Source: Bacteroidales bacterium
Lineage (GTDB): Bacteria; Bacteroidota; Bacteroidia; Bacteroidales; VadinHA17
Assembly: GCA_963662685.1 (NCBI GenBank)
Contig: OY759745.1
Location: 2,309,799-2,373,798 of the forward strand
Direction: 5' to 3'
Length of the DNA stretch: 64,000 bases
The position numbers and the translations under genes were made by a program. Of the stretch, positions 6,165 to 63,832 are shown in pieces (position 1 is the stretch's first letter; every line of letters begins with the position of its first letter). A model generated the notes under the pieces. It did not search any database and was not told the DNA's origin. It saw only the letters and a program-made list of their open reading frames with translations.

Positions 6165-7391
6165 ATGAGGAGAACCCTGGTTCCGTTTTTTATCATTTGT
6201 TTGGGGATGCCTATATCCCTTTGTGCCCAGATACTGGCACCTGGTGCGGATGCCGTGAGATTTTCCCGGTATAGTGCATCAACGGAAAAAGATCCCATTT
6301 TTATATTTTGCAATTCCTTGGGCTATGTTACTGGTACACTGGTAGCTCAGGATGATGCGGGACATGTTATAAATGATTTTAACTGGTATAAGTGGGACGA
6401 AGAGACAAACAGTTTCAGTGTCTATGTAAAGAGTGAGTATTCAGTAAACACCTCTACACTTGATAATGTTGATGAAGGAGGCTACAGGGTTGAGGTTTCA
6501 AACGTTTCAGGTAGTTCAGTGTTTACCTGTTGGGTTTTTATCGATAAGCCGTATGCTTTGGCCAAACTGATGAATAATGGTTGCGATTACGTGGCACTGG
6601 ACGGAACAGCGGCAGTTGATACATTCTATTATTATGATCCATTATCGGGCGACAAGATAGATCTTCCCAACGCTGTCAGGCATCTTTGGTCGTCTGCTCC
6701 TCAAAGTTCAATACCATATCCTGATCTGAGGATAGATCCTTACACTTTTGACCCGCCCCTTGATGATGTAACTTATAAGCTTGTTGTTACAGATAGTATG
6801 ACTTGTGTTGGTGAATCCTCTTTTTATTACGAGTCCATCCATGTAAAAGCCGGCTTATCTGCTGATGTGGAAGAGGGAGAGGCCCCGTTGGAAGTAAATT
6901 TATCTAACGAATCCATAAGAGGATATAACTATACCTGGGATTTCGGCGATGATACGGAGAATTCCTCACTGGAGGTTCCGGAAACACATATTTTTTATCG
7001 TCCCGGGAGTTATACCGTAACCCTGAATATTGAAAGCGAATTACTCTGTGAAGATTCTGATAGCCTTGTTATTACAGTAACACCTTCGTTGCTCTCGATA
7101 CCAAATGCCTTTACTCCAAATGAAGACGGATATAACGACAGGTTTCTTGTTGATAAGCAATCACTCAGATACCTGAATATTCAGATTTTCAGTAATACAG
7201 GGGTAAAGGTTTATGGCTTTGCCGGTGATACGGAGAGCATTCAAAGCTGGGAGGGGTGGGATGGTAATATCAACAATTCAAACCGTAAAGCTGGTCCCGG
7301 TGTTTACTACTACATCATTAATGCTATAGGATGGGATGATGAGAGATACAATGGAAAAGAGTACCGGGGGTTCTTATACCTTTATCGCTGA
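6165..7391 (+). CDS. Secreted PKD-domain protein with T9SS type-B (gliding-motility C-terminal, CHU_C) sorting domain
   Basis: N-terminal signal peptide. A PKD-like YTWDFGDD...GSYTVTLNI motif is present. The C-terminal IPNAFTPNEDGYNDRF motif is typical of T9SS type-B sorting domains. Confidence 0.8.
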   Translation: MRRTLVPFFIICLGMPISLCAQILAPGADAVRFSRYSASTEKDPIFIFCNSLGYVTGTLVAQDDAGHVINDFNWYKWDEETNSFSVYVKSEYSVNTSTLDNVDEGGYRVEVSNVSGSSVFTCWVFIDKPYALAKLMNNGCDYVALDGTAAVDTFYYYDPLSGDKIDLPNAVRHLWSSAPQSSIPYPDLRIDPYTFDPPLDDVTYKLVVTDSMTCVGESSFYYESIHVKAGLSADVEEGEAPLEVNLSNESIRGYNYTWDFGDDTENSSLEVPETHIFYRPGSYTVTLNIESELLCEDSDSLVITVTPSLLSIPNAFTPNEDGYNDRFLVDKQSLRYLNIQIFSNTGVKVYGFAGDTESIQSWEGWDGNINNSNRKAGPGVYYYIINAIGWDDERYNGKEYRGFLYLYR

Positions 7392-21784: not shown

Positions 21785-22942
21785 ATGAAAAACGAAAAGA
21801 ACAATCAAATTTCAAGAAGGGGGTTTTTGGGCAGTGCGGCTGTTGTTGCCGCGGCCGCGACAATGGTCCCATCATTGGTTTCATGCGGCGGAGGCAAGGA
21901 TGATCCTTACGCCAATGCTCTTATAAAAGAGGATGGTAAACCAAATTCTAAATTTAATGGGGTCCAGGTAGGCGCTATTACTTATAGTTTTAAAGGAGTT
22001 AGCGGTTCAGACGCAACAATAAAGGCATGTATGGAGGCCAACGTAAGTTCTATAGAATTAATGGGAAACGGTCTGGAAGAAGAGGTTGGCGCACCAACTA
22101 ACCCAGTTCAGAGAAGAGGTGGATTTGGAGGCGGTCCGATGCCGGGCGGCCCAATGCCGGGTGGTCCAATGCCGGGTGGTGCTCCCGGTGGTGGTGGAAT
22201 GCCGGGCGGTCCTCCCGCTGGCGGCGCTATGCCGCAGATGCAACAGCCTGAGTTGACCGAAGAAGAAAAGGCCCTTCAGGCTAAGTACGAAGAAGATTTG
22301 GCGGCTTTCCGAAAAGATCCGGCAACAATGGAAAAATGGGCGGCACTCGCTAAAAAATTCTCAGATGCGGGAATAGATGTTCATATTTTCAAATGGACAG
22401 CCGGAGATACAGACGAACTAATGGATTACTCGTTCAGTGTAGCTAAACTATTTGGAGCGGTAGGAATAACAACCGAGGGAAGTGAAGAAACCTGTAAGAC
22501 TTTTGGCGCTCATGCTGAACGAAATGGAATGTTGGCTATTTATCATAACCATGGTCAATACGCTCCGTTGCAAATATCGGATATTGACAGATGGCTCGCA
22601 TATTCGCCCGCTAACAGGCTTAATTTTGATTGCGGACACTATTTTGGTTTCGGTTATGATACACCTGGACTTGATCCTATACAGTTCATAGATCATTTTG
22701 CCGATAAAATAGCGAGTGTGCATTTCAAGGACAAAACCAAGCTTACTAATGAGTTCGCCAGTAACCAGAACCAGGTATGGGGCCAGGGCGAAACCCCGGT
22801 CAGGGAAATATTACAGCATATCCGCGATAATTATCCTTATATGTATTGTGATATCGAACTTGAATATTCGGTACCCGCATGGTCTGATTCAGCAAAAGAG
22901 GTTGCCACATGCGTTCGCTATGCGAGAGAAGCTTTGATCTAA
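21785..22942 (+). CDS. TAT-exported, possibly lipidated, sugar phosphate isomerase/epimerase family protein (xylose-isomerase-like TIM barrel) with a Gly/Pro/Met-rich insertion
   Basis: Twin-arginine signal SRRGFLGSAAVVAAAATMVPSLVSC. TIM-barrel blocks: IELMGN, DAGIDVHIFKW, AIYHNHG, NFDCGHY, HFKD and CDIELEY. The insertion reads GGFGGGPMPGGPMPGGPMPGGAPGGGGMPGGPPAGGAMPQMQQ. Confidence 0.85.
   Translation: MKNEKNNQISRRGFLGSAAVVAAAATMVPSLVSCGGGKDDPYANALIKEDGKPNSKFNGVQVGAITYSFKGVSGSDATIKACMEANVSSIELMGNGLEEEVGAPTNPVQRRGGFGGGPMPGGPMPGGPMPGGAPGGGGMPGGPPAGGAMPQMQQPELTEEEKALQAKYEEDLAAFRKDPATMEKWAALAKKFSDAGIDVHIFKWTAGDTDELMDYSFSVAKLFGAVGITTEGSEETCKTFGAHAERNGMLAIYHNHGQYAPLQISDIDRWLAYSPANRLNFDCGHYFGFGYDTPGLDPIQFIDHFADKIASVHFKDKTKLTNEFASNQNQVWGQGETPVREILQHIRDNYPYMYCDIELEYSVPAWSDSAKEVATCVRYAREALI
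22130..22174 (+). repeat. 3 x 15-bp in-frame tandem repeat encoding (GGPMP)3, the core of a longer low-complexity tract at about 22112-22232
   Basis: ggcggtccgatgccg / ggcggcccaatgccg / ggtggtccaatgccg, read directly. Degenerate copies follow. Confidence 0.9.
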
Positions 22943-57281: not shown

Positions 57282-60200
57282 TTAATTAAATATATAACGG
57301 ACTCCAATCTGTAACTGCCAGCAGTTGGTGTAGACTTTATCATTGGTAAAACTGGTGGATGGCAAGTAATCTGTGCCATTAGAGTCTGTTTGGTAGTACA
57401 TTGAATAAGTGGGGACGTTCGAGGCAGTTTTTCCTTCATATCTCAATATTCTGCCGTAGTTAGATGGTGAAGATGACTGCATCAGTCCCCAGTTACTACT
57501 TATCAGGTTACCGAAATTCAGTATATCTAAGCTGACCTGGAGAGTGTTAGTACTATTTCCGGCTTTTATTTTGAACTCTTCGGTCAGTTTAAGATCTAAT
57601 CTGTTCAACCATGGCATTTTTGCCCCGTAAGCTTCAGCATATTCACCTTTATGCTTGCTAAGATATTTGTCCTGTTCAACAAAATTCCAGAAAGCTGAGG
57701 CCTGTTCATCCGCTGTAAATCCATTGGCATCAACAAATGTAAGGTCATTGGCGGAAGTCGGGATATATATAAGGTCATATGTCTGACCGTCCTGATTCAT
57801 GTCATTGGAATACATATAGCTAATCATCCCTGAGTTATATCCTGAATAGTATAGACCTATATTTGTCGCCAGGTTTTTAGCGTACTCAAATTTATAACTG
57901 AACGAACCGATAACCTTATCAGGTGTCAGATATTGAGAGTTGTGGAGATCCACGAGGTTAGGACCGTCTACCGATGGAAGATTGTTCCATGCGGAATAAG
58001 CCTGTGATCCGGGATTACCAGATATTTCTTTAGCTATTGTATGGGTATATGATGCCATCAGGTTCATATTTGTCATTGGTTGTGCTGTAACCATTATGTT
58101 GGCTGTCCCACTATAGCCTTTACTGGTGTTTTTAAGAACTACAGCGCCGCTGGTAACTCTTGAAGAGATCATTGCGGCGGAACTGCTACCATAATCCAGC
58201 CTGTTATCGGGGCCGGAAAAGGTGGGCAGGCCTGAAGGATCAACAACGTTGTAGTTTTCCATGCATACAGCGTTAATATCTTTGTTGAACATGCCTTCTA
58301 CCGTAACGGTAACCGGCATCTCAACGGGTAACTGGTAATCAATGGCAATGGCGTTTTTCCAAAGCTGCGGCAATTTGAAGCTGGGATCTATTCCAACAAC
58401 CGTAGCTCTTGAAATATCATCTTCTGTCGCGTAACTCGGTGCGGTAGGAAGTCCCAATGTAGATATCATTTCATTGACATCAGTAATCATACCGCCGGTG
58501 AGTGTAGCCAGGTCCGCGGCTGAAGTAATGGAGACGGTGTTCTGCAACATCCCGGAATTAGTAGGCATGTTGGTGAAGAATACGAGAGGTATTCTTCCTG
58601 TAAACACTCCTGTTCCGCCACGCAGGATCAGGCTCTTGTCTCCGTTGATATCCCAGTTGAAACCGACGCGCGGGGAAAGCTGAACGGATACGTCGGGCCA
58701 TCTACCGTTATCAATATGTCTTCCGTTAAAATCAATGTCGAGTACTCCTTCATTGGTTTCAAGGTCGTTGAGGTAGTTCAGCATGTCGGCTCTCAATCCG
58801 TACGTGAGTTTTAATTTTTTTGTTATGTTCCATTCGTCCTGAGCGTAAACACCGGATTGAGCGAACGCGACTTCAGCGGCCGGACTCAGTTCCCCGCCAT
58901 AACCATAGGTAAGACCGAAAGCTATCGGCGCTGCTCCGCTAATAAAATCATCAAGTGAAACGTATTTATAATAACCTGTTCCATAACGCATAAAGTTATT
59001 TACCGCATTTTGGTATTCAAATGAAGCGCCTGCCGTTATATTGTGGCTTCCTGAGATGATTGTTATATAGTCGTTGGCGTTGAAAATGGTATTACCAACT
59101 TTATTGTTCCACGAAAAGAGTTCGTAACCCGCGCTCATGAAAGCGTTGCCATCTTTCCATATATCTACATGAGGGAACGGATCAGAGTTGGAACTTCGCT
59201 CATCAACAATATTTGAATAGGTAACCAGCAACTTATTGGATATCTGGTCGTTTAGCTTGCTGTTCAACTCACCGGCGATTGACAGAACATTGTTATCCAT
59301 GAAATAACAGTTATCCAGAAAAGCCATAGCATCTTTTGATATACGTCCCGACGCTGCTTTGGTTCCGACTGTCGAGGTAGCGTTAGTTGGGTAGGCTGTG
59401 GAATTTGTTGTATAATTGAATCTTACACTCAGTTTGTTCGCATTGTTTATGTTCCAGTCGATCTTTGCCAATGCTTTGTAGTTTTTTGTGCCTCCGTCGT
59501 AGTTGCTGTACGATCCCGGATCATAACCATAATCGTTTTTTAAAACATTAGCGAACGCGTCCATATCAGCCGAGGTAACCCTGCTAATGTAATTATCGGT
59601 AGAAATCCCGTCAGTGGATAGCTTCCAGTTATGGATAGGAGAGGGCGAATTTTCATATTCACCGTTAACAAAGAAGAAAAGTTTATTTTTGATTATGGGC
59701 CCTCCAACTGTAAATCCGTAGGTAGAAAGGGATTCCTCGGCCCTGTCGCCCATATCCTCTCCGGCTATCTTATTTCCTCTCATATCCTGGTTTCTTTGAT
59801 ATGTATAGGCGCTGGCTTTAAAGGTATTTGTACCACTTTTGGTAATGGCGTTTATACCTCCACCAATAAAGTTGGTCTGTCGTACATCAAACGGAGCTAT
59901 AACAACCTGGACCTCTTCTATGGCGTCCAGGGAGATTGGGTTACCACCTCCGGGCAGATTGGATGATAGTCCGAAGTTATTGTTAAGATTCGCTCCGTCA
60001 ATGGTGAAGGAACTCATCCTGCCATCGCGACCGGCAAAGTCATTCCCCCCTCCCGAGTATGGAGAAAGACGGGTAAAGTCTTCCAGGCTCCTGTCGATTG
60101 TAGGCATAATACCCAGCTGAGTATTGCTGATGTTGGTAATGGCCCCGTTTTTTTTACCAGAGAATTTGGACCTGTCGCCAACTACCGTAACCTCAGATAA

Positions 60201-60536
60201 CTGGGTAGCGGATTCATTAAGCTCTACATCGAGCATATAAGTTTCGCCCAGTTTAAGCGTAACTTCTTCAAAAACGGCAGTCGCATACCCGATGAAGGAG
60301 ACTTCGACTGTATAAGGTCCGCCAACGCGCATACCTTGAATGTCAAACAGACCGTTCCCACTGCTGATAGCGCCATACCGTGTTCCTGATGGTCCGTGCA
60401 CGGCTACGATGGTGGCACCGGATATGGTTTCGTTACCAGAAGAGACCACGCCACTCAAGCTGGCGGTAGTAACCTGTGCGTATACCCCAAAAAAGGTAAA
60501 TAACAGAAGCGCAAACAAAGATGTGATTCTTTTCAT
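57282..60536 (-). CDS. TonB-dependent receptor with N-terminal carboxypeptidase-regulatory-like domain (Oar-like). No SusD partner is present.
   Basis: Signal peptide. CarboxypepD_reg-like block: SLSGVV....E.ISGATIVAVH.PSGT.YG..S...G.F.I.GMRVGGPY.V.VSFIGY. A plug domain and a large barrel follow, ending YIFN. Confidence 0.88.
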   Translation of the reverse strand: MKRITSLFALLLFTFFGVYAQVTTASLSGVVSSGNETISGATIVAVHGPSGTRYGAISSGNGLFDIQGMRVGGPYTVEVSFIGYATAVFEEVTLKLGETYMLDVELNESATQLSEVTVVGDRSKFSGKKNGAITNISNTQLGIMPTIDRSLEDFTRLSPYSGGGNDFAGRDGRMSSFTIDGANLNNNFGLSSNLPGGGNPISLDAIEEVQVVIAPFDVRQTNFIGGGINAITKSGTNTFKASAYTYQRNQDMRGNKIAGEDMGDRAEESLSTYGFTVGGPIIKNKLFFFVNGEYENSPSPIHNWKLSTDGISTDNYISRVTSADMDAFANVLKNDYGYDPGSYSNYDGGTKNYKALAKIDWNINNANKLSVRFNYTTNSTAYPTNATSTVGTKAASGRISKDAMAFLDNCYFMDNNVLSIAGELNSKLNDQISNKLLVTYSNIVDERSSNSDPFPHVDIWKDGNAFMSAGYELFSWNNKVGNTIFNANDYITIISGSHNITAGASFEYQNAVNNFMRYGTGYYKYVSLDDFISGAAPIAFGLTYGYGGELSPAAEVAFAQSGVYAQDEWNITKKLKLTYGLRADMLNYLNDLETNEGVLDIDFNGRHIDNGRWPDVSVQLSPRVGFNWDINGDKSLILRGGTGVFTGRIPLVFFTNMPTNSGMLQNTVSITSAADLATLTGGMITDVNEMISTLGLPTAPSYATEDDISRATVVGIDPSFKLPQLWKNAIAIDYQLPVEMPVTVTVEGMFNKDINAVCMENYNVVDPSGLPTFSGPDNRLDYGSSSAAMISSRVTSGAVVLKNTSKGYSGTANIMVTAQPMTNMNLMASYTHTIAKEISGNPGSQAYSAWNNLPSVDGPNLVDLHNSQYLTPDKVIGSFSYKFEYAKNLATNIGLYYSGYNSGMISYMYSNDMNQDGQTYDLIYIPTSANDLTFVDANGFTADEQASAFWNFVEQDKYLSKHKGEYAEAYGAKMPWLNRLDLKLTEEFKIKAGNSTNTLQVSLDILNFGNLISSNWGLMQSSSPSNYGRILRYEGKTASNVPTYSMYYQTDSNGTDYLPSTSFTNDKVYTNCWQLQIGVRYIFN

Positions 60537-60794: not shown

Positions 60795-62141
60795 TTATCT
60801 GGGGGGTCCGTCACCGGGGTAGCCGCCACCACCGCTGTAGCCGCCACCACCGCTGTAGCCGCCACCACCGTAGCCACCGCCACCTTGAGTGGCGCCTCTT
60901 AGACGTGTATTGATAACGTTGTTGTACATTGATCCAAAGGTAAATGAAAAGCCGGTGTTGAATGACAATGACTGTGATGTGGATAGCTGGCGTATACCTA
61001 AATACAGATCCTCTGGACTGAGACTCTTTTTAGAAATGTTCACGTCGTCGTTGATAAGCGAGAAGCTACCAGACATGTTCCAAGAGAGTCCTTTCCAGAT
61101 ACGGATATTCAAACCAGCGGTTATGTTAACGTTGTTTTCGCTGAAATCTCTCAGGAAATTGCTGAAAGTAATGCTTGAAAATACATCTCCCCATTGTTCT
61201 CTCTGGAAATATCCAACAGAAATCTGTTCATAAGTTATAAGTTCTTCAGTTTGTTCAAATATAGTTGTATCAATATAATTTCTTCCATCTATACCAACAT
61301 AGTAGCCTATAGTTGCCTGTCGGCGACTTGACATCTCGTATGGGAAGAAGTTATATTCAAATGCGGCTGTAAGCTTATAATTAAAATCCAGATTATCAAC
61401 AGTATTTCTTTCAAGATGACCTAATATACCTACACCAGCGTTGGGTCCAAGTGATTTTACGGTTTCAGCGCTTAATATTGCTTTACTGGTCTTATTTATA
61501 GAGCTAAAATCATCAGAAATGAATTCCTGATTTTCGTATTCATAGTGAGTTCTTAACTCATGTCGCCATGCGGGGGTTATCCTTGAAACGTCAAGTCCTC
61601 CATTGTAATTTTGCGTTTTTCTGGTATCAACAGCTGAATAGTTTGCTCTCAAATCGGCTTCAAACACCCAACTGTCCCATGGATCATCGGTAACTACATT
61701 ACCTCCCCTTGGTATCTCATTAGAAGTTATATTGATATCCAGAATATTATTGGATAGAGCCATATAACGCATAAGTCCCATTTTCAAGACTTTAGTGTAT
61801 CCTTCCCTTGTTTCGGTATCTGTAGCCTGACCATTAGCAAAATAGCTAAGTGTATCAGCTTTACCCGCAAACTCTTTGAGGCCCATAAAGTAAAAATCGT
61901 ATTGTGATCCTGCTCCGGTCATGCTTCTGGCTACAAGAACATGTACATCAGATGCATCGCGGGTGCGGACATAGTTTACATAAGGGAATTCCTCCTTAAT
62001 GAAAGTTTCATCAATTTCTCCATCAAGAAATACATTGATTGTATTTTCCTGATTACTTGTCTGTTCTGTGGCGTTTTGTCCGTGGACAAACAAAGGTAAA
62101 AATAGTAGCATAGCTACAAATGGTAACAGTTTTCTTTTCAT
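60795..62141 (-). CDS. Signal-peptide protein of unknown family (probable outer-membrane beta-barrel) with a C-terminal Gly/Tyr-rich tail; paralog A
   Basis: Signal peptide LLFLPLFVHGQ. It shares long identical runs with 62528-63832. A beta-signal-like GFSFTF is followed by a 45-aa extension ending GGGGYGGGGYSGGGGYSGGGGYPGDGPPR. Confidence 0.75.
   Translation of the reverse strand: MKRKLLPFVAMLLFLPLFVHGQNATEQTSNQENTINVFLDGEIDETFIKEEFPYVNYVRTRDASDVHVLVARSMTGAGSQYDFYFMGLKEFAGKADTLSYFANGQATDTETREGYTKVLKMGLMRYMALSNNILDINITSNEIPRGGNVVTDDPWDSWVFEADLRANYSAVDTRKTQNYNGGLDVSRITPAWRHELRTHYEYENQEFISDDFSSINKTSKAILSAETVKSLGPNAGVGILGHLERNTVDNLDFNYKLTAAFEYNFFPYEMSSRRQATIGYYVGIDGRNYIDTTIFEQTEELITYEQISVGYFQREQWGDVFSSITFSNFLRDFSENNVNITAGLNIRIWKGLSWNMSGSFSLINDDVNISKKSLSPEDLYLGIRQLSTSQSLSFNTGFSFTFGSMYNNVINTRLRGATQGGGGYGGGGYSGGGGYSGGGGYPGDGPPR
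60819..60884 (-). repeat. In-frame tandem repeats (2 x 18 bp plus 2 x 15 bp) encoding the Gly/Tyr tail of paralog A
   Basis: Plus strand: gtagccgccaccaccgct / gtagccgccaccaccgct / gtagccgccaccacc / gtagccaccgccacc. Confidence 0.9.
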
Positions 62142-62474
62142 TGTTTTAGTATAATTTTTTTTGGTTTGTTGGATGCTTCAAAACATTTAAACAAGTTTTG
62201 GTATAATTCTTTGACAAAGGACTTTCAAAATGACTGGATTATTCCGATTTTTTTTGAAAACGAAAAAAACATCCCTGAAGGCGAAATATGTCTTATTTTA
62301 TGGAATAGTACTTCAACTTGATAAAATGTAATAAAAACATCGATTCTACTATATTTTTTTAATGTGATCGCGAATATAGCTATATTATCTTTTCCTGAAG
62401 TGAGGTTTTTTCGTTATCAACTATCAAATTTTCGTTTCAGAATGGCCACTGTCGTATGTTTCTGTTGTTATAAG

Positions 62475-62482
62475 TATGTTTG
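62475..62482 (+). promoter_or_regulatory. -7 promoter box TATGTTTG for paralog B
   Basis: Exact TAnnTTTG, 45 nt upstream of the ATG at 62528. Confidence 0.4.
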
Positions 62483-62527
62483 GCAATAGATTGGGGACAT
62501 ATGATGATATAATTAAAAAAATATAAT

Positions 62528-63832
62528 ATGAGAAATTACAGCTTAAAGTATTGTGTTGCGGTCTTGTTTTTGCTTTTATTGCCATTTTCTGTGAAGGGAC
62601 AAGAGGATGTGTCTACCTCTCCGGTTAATGTATTTATAGACGGGAGTATCGATGAGAACTATCTCAAAGAAGAATTTCCACAGGTCAATTATGTGCGCAC
62701 AAAGGAGTCGTCCAACGTTCACCTTCTGGCAACAAGACAATCAACGGGAGCGGGAATGCACTATCAGCTATTTTTTATTGGATATGGAGAATTCGCTGGC
62801 AAGAATGATACCCTTAGCTATTACTCAAATTCTCAGGCAACGTCAACCGAAATTAGGGATGGTTACACTAGGGTTATTGAAGCGGGGTTGATTCGTTACC
62901 TGGCTTTAGCCGATACCTATTATGATTTAAATATTCCGGATTCAGACGATCAGCGCGGAGGAAACTCAGTTGTTGAAGATCCTTGGGACAGCTGGGTATT
63001 TGATATCAGATTAAACGGAAATATGGGAGGAGAAGAATCGAAAAAATCCCAGTCTTTTTCCAGTGGACTTGACGTTTCCAGGGTGACAAACGACTGGCGT
63101 TTTGAGTTTTCTTTCGATTACGAGTCGGAAAAGAAGATTTACGATTATGACGATTATTACTCAGAGAATATTACTCTTGAGACGAGGGGAAAATACTCTG
63201 TTGTAAAGAGTCTGGGCCCACATGCCGGTACCGGTATTATTGGTGAATTACAAAGTAATACCGTGGATAATTATGATATAAACAGTGTAAATGCTTTGGC
63301 CATTGAGTATAACTTCTTTCCATACGATATGTCCAGTCGCCGGCAACTTTATGTAAATTATTTTATAGGAGTGGATTATAGGGATTACACTGATTCTACG
63401 GTATATGATAAGCTATATGAAACTATACCTTATGAAAGGTTTTCCATTGGTTACAGTCAAAGAGAGCAGTGGGGTAACGTGTCTGCTAACATCTCTTTCC
63501 AGAATTTTCTCAATGATTTTTCCAAAAATCATCTCAGGTTGAGTTCGGGTATTAATTTACGCATCTGGAGAGGATTATCGTGGAATTTAAATGCTAGCTA
63601 TTCGTTAATAAATGATGATGTGAATATTGCTAAAACTGAAGTTGATCCTGAGGATATATTGCTTGGACTCAGACAACTATCGACTTCATCTTCGTATAGT
63701 ATAAGAACAGGTATTTCGTTTACCTTCGGTTCCATGTACAATAATATCGTTAACACCCGTCTCCGTCAGGGTAGCAGCGGTGGCAGCGGTGGTAGCGGTG
63801 GTAGCAGTGGCGGCGGTGGCGGCCGATATTAA
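62528..63832 (+). CDS. Signal-peptide protein of unknown family (probable outer-membrane beta-barrel) with a C-terminal Gly/Ser-rich tail; paralog B
   Basis: Signal peptide VAVLFLLLLPFSVKGQ. The domain order matches paralog A. GISFTF is followed by GSMYNNIVNTRLRQGSSGGSGGSGGSSGGGGGRY. Confidence 0.75.
   Translation: MRNYSLKYCVAVLFLLLLPFSVKGQEDVSTSPVNVFIDGSIDENYLKEEFPQVNYVRTKESSNVHLLATRQSTGAGMHYQLFFIGYGEFAGKNDTLSYYSNSQATSTEIRDGYTRVIEAGLIRYLALADTYYDLNIPDSDDQRGGNSVVEDPWDSWVFDIRLNGNMGGEESKKSQSFSSGLDVSRVTNDWRFEFSFDYESEKKIYDYDDYYSENITLETRGKYSVVKSLGPHAGTGIIGELQSNTVDNYDINSVNALAIEYNFFPYDMSSRRQLYVNYFIGVDYRDYTDSTVYDKLYETIPYERFSIGYSQREQWGNVSANISFQNFLNDFSKNHLRLSSGINLRIWRGLSWNLNASYSLINDDVNIAKTEVDPEDILLGLRQLSTSSSYSIRTGISFTFGSMYNNIVNTRLRQGSSGGSGGSGGSSGGGGGRY
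63770..63823 (+). repeat. Degenerate 9-bp in-frame tandem repeats (agcggtggy) encoding the Gly/Ser tail of paralog B
   Basis: ggtagcagcggtggcagcggtggtagcggtggtagcagtggcggcggtggcggc, read directly. Confidence 0.85.

Follow-up and report, generated by a model that had tools for sequence, protein, structure and literature searches.

In the window analyzed here, a stretch of 64,000 nucleotides from a Bacteroidales bacterium (assembly GCA_963662685.1, contig OY759745.1, positions 2,309,799 to 2,373,798), two divergently transcribed paralogous genes, termed A and B, lie near the downstream end. The contig is Bacteroidales-like and was assembled from a metagenome (ENA ERZ25042269). The reading that we favor, with moderate confidence, is that A and B belong to an uncharacterized family of 12-stranded outer-membrane barrels, that these proteins act as periplasmic scaffolds, that their glycine-rich tails are dispensable appendices made by repeat slippage, and that the pairing of the two genes is a local arrangement.

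Predicted architecture and conserved core

The preliminary description of this locus had reported a divergent pair of paralogous signal-peptide proteins of 448 and 434 amino acids, separated by a 386-bp spacer, and both the open reading frames and a BLASTP alignment of the two products bear this out. A and B align over 412 aa with 53% identity, 72% positives and E = 4e-164, and every shared motif listed previously is present in that alignment. In both proteins we read GFSFTF (A) or GISFTF (B), then GSMYNN(V/I)(I/V)NTRLR and then the glycine-rich tails as they had been quoted. The leaders, likewise read from sequence, possess a basic n-region and a hydrophobic core, end with cleavage between VHG and Q in A and between VKG and Q in B, and lack a lipobox; both are of the signal-peptidase-I type, in agreement with the earlier assignment. 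The features of the two genes and of the folded part of their products are as follows.

60795..62141, minus strand: gene A, 448 aa, with signal peptide, N-terminal alpha/beta domain, predicted 12-stranded barrel, conserved C-terminal motif and Gly/Tyr tail (open reading frame, AlphaFold2, homologs)
62528..63832, plus strand: gene B, 434 aa, a paralog of A of like architecture (open reading frame, BLASTP to A, DUF481 match of 20.6 bits)
62079..62141, minus strand: putative signal peptide of A, aa 1-21, MKRKLLPFVAMLLFLPLFVHG before Q, signal-peptidase-I type with Gln at +1 and without a lipobox Cys (cleavage site placed by eye)
62528..62599, plus strand: putative signal peptide of B, aa 1-24, ending LLLPFSVKG before Q (read from sequence, probable site)
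61752..62045, minus strand: predicted N-terminal alpha/beta domain of A, aa ~33-130, beta-alpha-beta-beta-beta-beta-alpha, presumably periplasmic (AlphaFold2)
60936..61685, minus strand: predicted barrel region of A, aa 153-402, a DPWDSW lead-in plus 12 strands, the last ending GFSFTF (AlphaFold2 with DSSP, Foldseek, weak DUF481 match)
62978..63727, plus strand: predicted barrel region of B, aa 151-400, placed by alignment to A (BLASTP register A-2; DUF481 match at aa 173-366)
60897..60938, minus strand: post-barrel motif of A, FGSMYNNVINTRLR, aa 402-415 (conservation over 188 sequences)
63725..63766, plus strand: post-barrel motif of B, FGSMYNNIVNTRLR, aa 400-413 (alignment, conservation)

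A model of full-length A was computed using AlphaFold2 on a 37-sequence alignment (mean predicted local distance difference test, pLDDT, 74.6; predicted template-modeling score, pTM, 0.56). The model comprises three parts, namely an N-terminal domain (N-domain) at aa 36-129, a low-confidence linker and 12 long strands at aa 158-400. The pLDDT is 77-92 in the N-domain and mostly 82-92 in the strands, and the N-domain modeled alone reaches a pLDDT of 86 and a pTM of 0.75. Residues beyond 401 are of low confidence, with a pLDDT of about 46-56 across the conserved motif and 22-31 in the tail. A Foldseek comparison of the barrel model with the PDB yields outer-membrane barrels as the sole matches, including NanC (target-normalized template-modeling score, TM-score, 0.57), OmpG, PcoB, FapF and the autotransporter beta-domains of EspP and BrkA; none of these PDB matches is a specific relative. 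Counting strands in an AlphaFold model had been suggested as a check on the proposed outer-membrane barrel. The 12 strands predicted in A, the barrel-only Foldseek matches and a weak match to DUF481, described below, together support that proposal.

The preliminary description had also taken GFSFTF and GISFTF for a terminal beta-signal. The last predicted barrel strand does end in these residues; its position, however, is internal, with 46 residues following it in A and 34 in B, and the aromatic residue of the strand therefore does not stand at the extreme C-terminus. That the chain runs past its last strand was correctly seen, and since the number of strands is even, the tail is expected to lie in the periplasm.

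Conservation was mapped over 188 full-length family sequences, given here in A numbering. The most conserved contiguous block of the family is the post-barrel motif FGSxYNN(V/I)VNxR(F/L), in which F402, G403, S404, N407, N408, V410, N411 and R413 are each 87-100% identical (fractional identity 1.00 for F402, G403 and R413, 0.99 for N411, 0.98 for V410 and 0.97 for S404). Outside the motif, the near-invariant positions precede strand 1 (D153, W155 and W158 of DPWDSW) or sit in turns, namely the one that follows strand 6 (E262, P267 and Y268 of EYNxFPY), the one joining strands 8 and 9 (W317 and G318) and the one joining strands 10 and 11 (G351). In the AlphaFold2 model, all of them map to the rim of the barrel that bears the N and C termini. 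The connections on this rim sum to 19 residues and those on the opposite rim to 46, the latter being mostly short loops (five of 2-9 residues and one of 23). As modeled, this asymmetry is what one would expect if, as is usual, the turns face the periplasm and the loops the exterior.

Because the near-invariant residues gather at the rim of the termini and the opposite loops are mostly short, we infer that the working surface of these proteins is periplasmic and consists of the N-domain, the turns and the C-terminal motif, with the barrel chiefly a membrane anchor. The leader would direct export of a chain that, once assembled, would present a periplasmic alpha/beta domain of ~100 aa, a 12-stranded DUF481-like barrel and the post-barrel motif on the periplasmic side. 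The barrel would mainly anchor the protein, and its periplasmic face would serve as a scaffold or docking surface rather than as a channel for nutrients. An outer-membrane enzyme was also considered and set aside, given the lack of an invariant His/Ser-type catalytic set and the position of the conserved residues at the periplasmic rim.

Family membership and glycine-rich tails

The preliminary description could assign A and B to no family. An assignment can in fact be made, though remotely, to DUF481-like proteins. The DUF481 hidden Markov model (HMM) of Pfam scores 18.1 bits on A (aa 175-364) and 20.6 bits on B, both under the gathering score of 21.1. DUF481 is nonetheless the sole recurrent Pfam match among family members, being found in 12 of 37 relatives at E < 0.01 (best E = 1.9e-6); three relatives carry a precomputed PF04338 match, and two are named 'DUF481 domain-containing protein' in their sources. 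TCDB lists DUF481 (1.B.75) as a putative 12-strand outer-membrane pore-forming family (PMC4827864), and the 12 strands predicted in A agree with the strand number in that listing. An hhalign comparison of the family profile, A1, with E. coli YdiY, made against a single sequence and hence of limited sensitivity, gives a probability of 0.4% and E = 0.15 over 19 columns. Because this comparison found nothing, the link to DUF481 is placed at the superfamily level only and appears remote.

Other searches add no closer relation. NCBIfam gives no match, the N-domain has no match in Pfam, and the PDB, searched by sequence and with profiles (A1 and, for the N-domain, A2), returns no relative, the single-sequence matches being GGS linkers only. 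A characterized function was not found in the literature on DUF481 and YdiY. The Bacteroidota subunits of the machinery that assembles beta-barrels (BAM), namely BamG, BamH, BamM and BamP, were rejected as relatives on their unrelated architectures (PMC12611786).

An exhaustive HMM search yields 3445 family representatives (one for each 50%-identity cluster) at E ≤ 1e-3, with 1471 remaining at E ≤ 1e-30; at least 569 family loci are present in species-representative genomes. Carriers within the Bacteroidota are found among Bacteroidales, Prolixibacteraceae, Rikenellaceae, Flavobacteriales and Saprospiraceae, and further carriers among Balneolaceae, Kapaibacterium, Calditrichaceae (Calditrichota), KSB1, Gemmatimonadota and Acidobacteriota. 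Family members are labeled 'hypothetical' or 'DUF481 domain-containing protein' in their sources, and none is characterized. In most distant members, the N-domain carries a CxxC-like pair of cysteines within its first strand and helix (FLDCxxCD; columns ~95-105 of alignment A1). Both cysteines are replaced in A (FLDGEID) and in B (FIDGSID), so that the A/B clade has lost a probable disulfide of the N-domain.

The tails of A and B and the tandem DNA repeats that encode them are the following.

60798..60896, minus strand: Gly/Tyr-rich tail of A, aa 416-448, GATQGGGGYGGGGYSGGGGYSGGGGYPGDGPPR, predicted to be disordered (pLDDT as given above, sequence)
63767..63829, plus strand: Gly/Ser-rich tail of B, aa 414-434, QGSSGGSGGSGGSSGGGGGRY (sequence)
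60819..60870: DNA repeat in the tail of A, a perfect 18-nt unit in 2.9 copies, in frame, encoding SGGGGY (Tandem Repeats Finder, 100% matches, score 104)
63770-63820: DNA repeat in the tail of B, a 9-nt GGTGGCAGC unit in 5.7 copies, in frame (Tandem Repeats Finder)

A survey of the tail across the family had been suggested earlier, and we carried it out on the residues that follow the conserved motif in 193 family sequences.

No tail (0-2 residues): 33%, several stopping exactly at NPRF or NTRL
Short tail, non-Gly: 29%
Tail with a Gly run: 38%
Subset of the Gly-run tails with G3-5 followed by 4-6 hydrophobic or alternating residues: 19% of all (GGGGMTIIMN, GGGSFFFF, GGGGYSISFSN)
Subset of the Gly-run tails that are long (at least 20 aa) and Gly-rich as in A and B: 5% of all

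The glycine-rich tail is thus real in A and B, as had been described, but it does not define the family, a third of whose members stop 0-2 residues after the motif. Long tails occur mainly in the window's own clade. The Gly tail is missing in many relatives, including members of that clade (P0005 in the A clade, P0012 and P0013 in the B clade), and on this comparison the family appears not to require it. Tail length and sequence also vary inside clusters more than 90% identical: the tail of P0001 is 33 aa long and that of P0198 is 23 aa long, and the tails of the P0015 cluster read RGGGGYGGGGGGRY, RGGGGYSGGGRY and RSGGGYSGGGGGRR. Given the tandem DNA repeats and these differences between near-identical proteins, the tail is a slippage-driven, fast-changing appendix. 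Slippage of in-frame repeats both creates and resizes the tails, which would hang, disordered, from the periplasmic face of the barrel; there they would be tolerated, perhaps under weak selection, as a flexible spacer with an Arg or aromatic residue at its end.

Known C-terminal sorting signals were also compared with the tails. GlyGly-CTERM, PEP-CTERM and the C-terminal domain (CTD) of the type IX secretion system were rejected, as the tails contain no transmembrane helix and no CTD is found by Pfam; the longest hydrophobic stretch in the tails is 4-6 residues and occurs in distant relatives only. In P0027, P0028 and P0058, all from other metagenomes, the motif is followed by a Cys-rich variant, GGGG(G)NCECFGGSCFCN, a sequence that could form disulfides or bind metal. 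Elsewhere in the window, a low-complexity insert rich in Gly, Pro and Met, GGFGGGPMPGGPMPGGPMPGGAPGGGGMPGG, is found in a 385-aa protein (21785-22942, plus strand) whose leader is twin-arginine-like; it adds another Gly-rich low-complexity stretch in an exported protein of this genome.

Duplication, pairing and neighborhood

In a neighbor-joining tree the A clade and the B clade are sisters, and the duplication is therefore lineage-specific. In the same tree, a neighboring lineage has duplicated independently (P0006 and P0009 versus P0008, P0010 and P0011); in the P0006 genome a second copy is not present within 10 kb, although the 787-kb contig of P0006 also carries P0008. A single family copy is seen at most loci. 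A check of whether divergent pairs are the rule, as the preliminary description had proposed, finds the pair, like the adjacent receptor, confined to close relatives and missing at about 80 other loci. Two further features belong to the local layout.

62142..62527: divergent spacer between A and B, 386 bp, AT-rich, 27% GC
57282..60536, minus strand: Oar-like TonB-dependent receptor, downstream of A (Pfam CarboxypepD_reg and OMP_b-brl_4)

The Pfam domains of the neighboring gene confirm its earlier identification as an Oar-like TonB receptor, and a type I phosphodiesterase (Pfam) comes after it in the window. The local gene order, Cthe_2159, B-like gene, spacer, A-like gene, Oar-like receptor, phosphodiesterase and Gate, is retained in relatives L091 and L092 (78% identity) and L084 (62% identity), the last with a divergent B-like N-terminus 385 bp upstream, and is partly visible in L082. 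Synteny of the Oar-like receptor with A is found in L082, L084 and L091 only. Clustering of the open reading frames over 82 loci finds no neighbor family in more than 10 loci. A homolog of the TonB-dependent receptor lies within 6 kb at one of the 81 other loci, and the phosphodiesterase at 0 of 81. On these counts an association with the receptor or the phosphodiesterase was rejected, and the dedicated envelope system previously suggested for the pair and the Oar-like receptor finds no conserved neighborhood behind it. Across the loci compared, the pairing and the receptor adjacency reflect local synteny in one Bacteroidales lineage.

The spacer is conserved among three related taxa, the window and two others, with 69% column identity. 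It holds three of the window's 10 copies of TTTTCGTT, at 62259 (minus strand), 62408 (plus strand) and 62429 (plus strand), and a Bacteroidota-type TAnnTTTG box at 62475, 45 nt before the ATG of B. Plausibly, from its sequence, it is a shared regulatory region containing a candidate operator and promoter for A and B. An Rfam scan of the spacer and the genes finds no family, and a sigma-70 promoter scan performs no better than on shuffled sequences.

Three further observations concern other loci of the family. Genes for a PadR-like regulator and PspC-domain proteins, an annotation read from sequence, adjoin the family gene in a subset of Bacteroidales loci, L016, L044, L055, L062, L065 and L069; they lie directly upstream on the same strand in four of these loci and are inverted in two, an adjacency that may represent clade-specific synteny or a link to envelope stress. 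In L027 (Gemmatimonadaceae), two same-strand family copies lie 4.6 kb apart, at 7171 and 11831, each ending in GGGG and hydrophobic residues (GGGGNIIFF and GGGGSIIFS); this is a separate duplication event, in a distant phylum. Finally, three independent assemblies (L084, L085 and L086) break at the same base in the B-like gene, before the DPWDSW region (position 2); we suspect that the repeat formed by the A and B paralogs collapses short-read assembly there.

Alternative explanations and known systems

Several points weigh against the reading that we favor. The DUF481 membership of A and B is sub-threshold as scored on their sequences, and the YdiY comparison by hhalign is empty. That both termini face the periplasm is an assumption drawn from the loop lengths of the model and its even number of strands, and the same model does not place the conserved C-terminal motif. 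The scaffold role is deduced from the placement of conserved residues in an uncharacterized family. The tails, moreover, show a terminal bias: among those longer than 2 aa, 51% end in F, Y or W and 76% possess an aromatic residue within the last three, and the local clade keeps an Arg or aromatic tail end despite indels, with B ending in RY and A in GDGPPR. This bias points to some selection on the tail sequence, which the view of a neutral appendix underrates.

The same bias would be expected of a functional, tethered C-terminus, in which a short hydrophobic or aromatic element at the end of the chain is presented on the Gly run as on a flexible linker. This element could insert into the protein's own barrel as an additional strand or a plug or, alternatively, could serve as a displaced terminal beta-signal or a PDZ ligand recognized by BAM or by quality-control proteases of the periplasm; the long GGGY/GGS tails would be an expanded version of the device. 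The 19% of the family with G3-5 plus 4-6 hydrophobic or alternating residues (for example, MSFSMSY) and the tail-less members, which end in R-F/L/M, are consistent with such a tether, but a third of the family has no tail to tether, A lacks a terminal aromatic residue, and the tail is unstructured in the AlphaFold2 model (pLDDT below 35) with no docking site identified; we regard this explanation as unlikely. A bolder form of it, to which we give little credence, would combine the motif, the Gly linker and the aromatic or basic residues at the terminus into a new tethered periplasmic effector on an outer-membrane barrel, with A and B as specialized variants. Such an effector could be a strand or plug docking in its own barrel, in a partner barrel or in BamA, or, in the GGGY-expanded clade, could instead be a low-complexity 'velcro' between cell wall and outer membrane in phyla without Lpp.

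Alternatively, A and B could be small passive diffusion pores, gated on the periplasmic side by the N-domain or the C-terminal motif. The resemblance of the 12-stranded barrel to NanC and OmpG in Foldseek, the classification of DUF481 as a putative pore-forming family (PMC4827864) and the altered fusidic-acid sensitivity of a Pseudoalteromonas DUF481 mutant (bioRxiv 10.1101/2024.12.11.627208) are in keeping with a channel. Conservation, however, is found on the periplasmic rim and in the post-barrel motif and not in the lumen or the loops, no substrate-related genes are conserved nearby, and the relation to DUF481 is borderline, all of which makes a channel rather improbable. In the remaining alternative, raised by the preliminary description, A and B would be a dedicated envelope system, perhaps a heteromeric pore or anchor, operating jointly with the Oar-like receptor, a reading that the survey of gene context largely contradicts. 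The order of divergent pair, receptor and phosphodiesterase is kept in three related taxa, and the conserved spacer with its repeated TTTTCGTT motifs suggests co-regulation of A and B; yet these taxa are close relatives (62-78% identity), where synteny is expected anyway, the receptor and phosphodiesterase counts at the other loci are those given above, most loci are single-copy, the two paralogs of another genome are more than 10 kb apart, and the duplication is lineage-specific. We consider a dedicated system of this kind quite unlikely.

A and B, read as paralogous barrels with a periplasmic working face, point to a very large and unstudied outer-membrane family that comprises thousands of clusters in the Fibrobacterota-Chlorobiota-Bacteroidota (FCB) group, Gemmatimonadota and Acidobacteriota. 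The best-conserved element of this family follows the barrel, on what is expected to be the periplasmic side, a position that hints at a role in envelope organization and not in transport. Several envelope components of proteobacteria are missing from the carrier phyla, and a conserved outer-membrane protein whose working face is periplasmic therefore merits genetic study in these organisms. The tails of A and B provide a clean example of a low-complexity extension by repeat slippage on a bacterial envelope protein; on present evidence they do not indicate a new system.

Comparison with known systems places each part of these proteins separately. The tails resemble the Gly-rich and GGY regions of eukaryotes in being composed of repeats of G with Y, F or S and in carrying an Arg near the end. 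There is no homology to those regions; in A and B the repeats are short, bacterial, presumably periplasmic and variable in length between near-identical sequences. For the N-domain of A, the best Foldseek matches are to LptE, the N-domain of TolB and GNA1162, all of them periplasmic and outer-membrane-associated, along with the ribosomal HPF/YfiA fold, which scores equally well. These matches are weak (E ≥ 2.5e-3, with none at E ≤ 1e-3; query-normalized TM-score 0.28-0.51), and we read the modeled domain as a generic two-layer alpha/beta sandwich, a resemblance that is not evidence of membership. LptE-like membership in particular was rejected (E = 2.5e-3 to 5.3e-3, query-normalized TM-score 0.28-0.43, no lipobox): in contrast to LptE-type modules, A and B possess no lipobox and have the N-domain fused to a barrel of their own, so that the resemblance is at the level of the fold only.

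In OmpA-type proteins the last strand is internal, and the chain goes on into the periplasm as a folded peptidoglycan-binding domain. The last strand of A and B is likewise not the C-terminus, and the chain is expected to enter the periplasm, for which OmpA-type proteins provide a precedent of running past the beta-signal. Unlike OmpA, the family of A and B has as its extension an invariant motif of 12 residues, after which a low-complexity tail follows or the chain stops, and Pfam finds no OmpA_C match.

The closest comparison is with DUF481 (PF04338; TCDB 1.B.75; E. coli YdiY), whose members share with A and B a signal peptide, a predicted 12-stranded outer-membrane barrel and an unassigned function. 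Over the barrel region (aa ~175-365) the Pfam HMM matches with 18-21 bits, and some relatives match it significantly, whereas A and B themselves fall below the gathering score and show no detectable similarity to YdiY by hhalign. A DUF481 protein is expected to be a bare 12-strand barrel of some 250-280 aa, and A agrees with this in its predicted number of strands. The family of A and B is about 170 aa longer and adds to the barrel an N-terminal alpha/beta domain, for which there is no Pfam model, and the invariant post-barrel motif, the tail being optional; its range is the FCB group, Gemmatimonadota and Acidobacteriota. A and B are read here as DUF481-like barrels with added modules, of moderate interest chiefly for the size of their family and for how little it has been studied.

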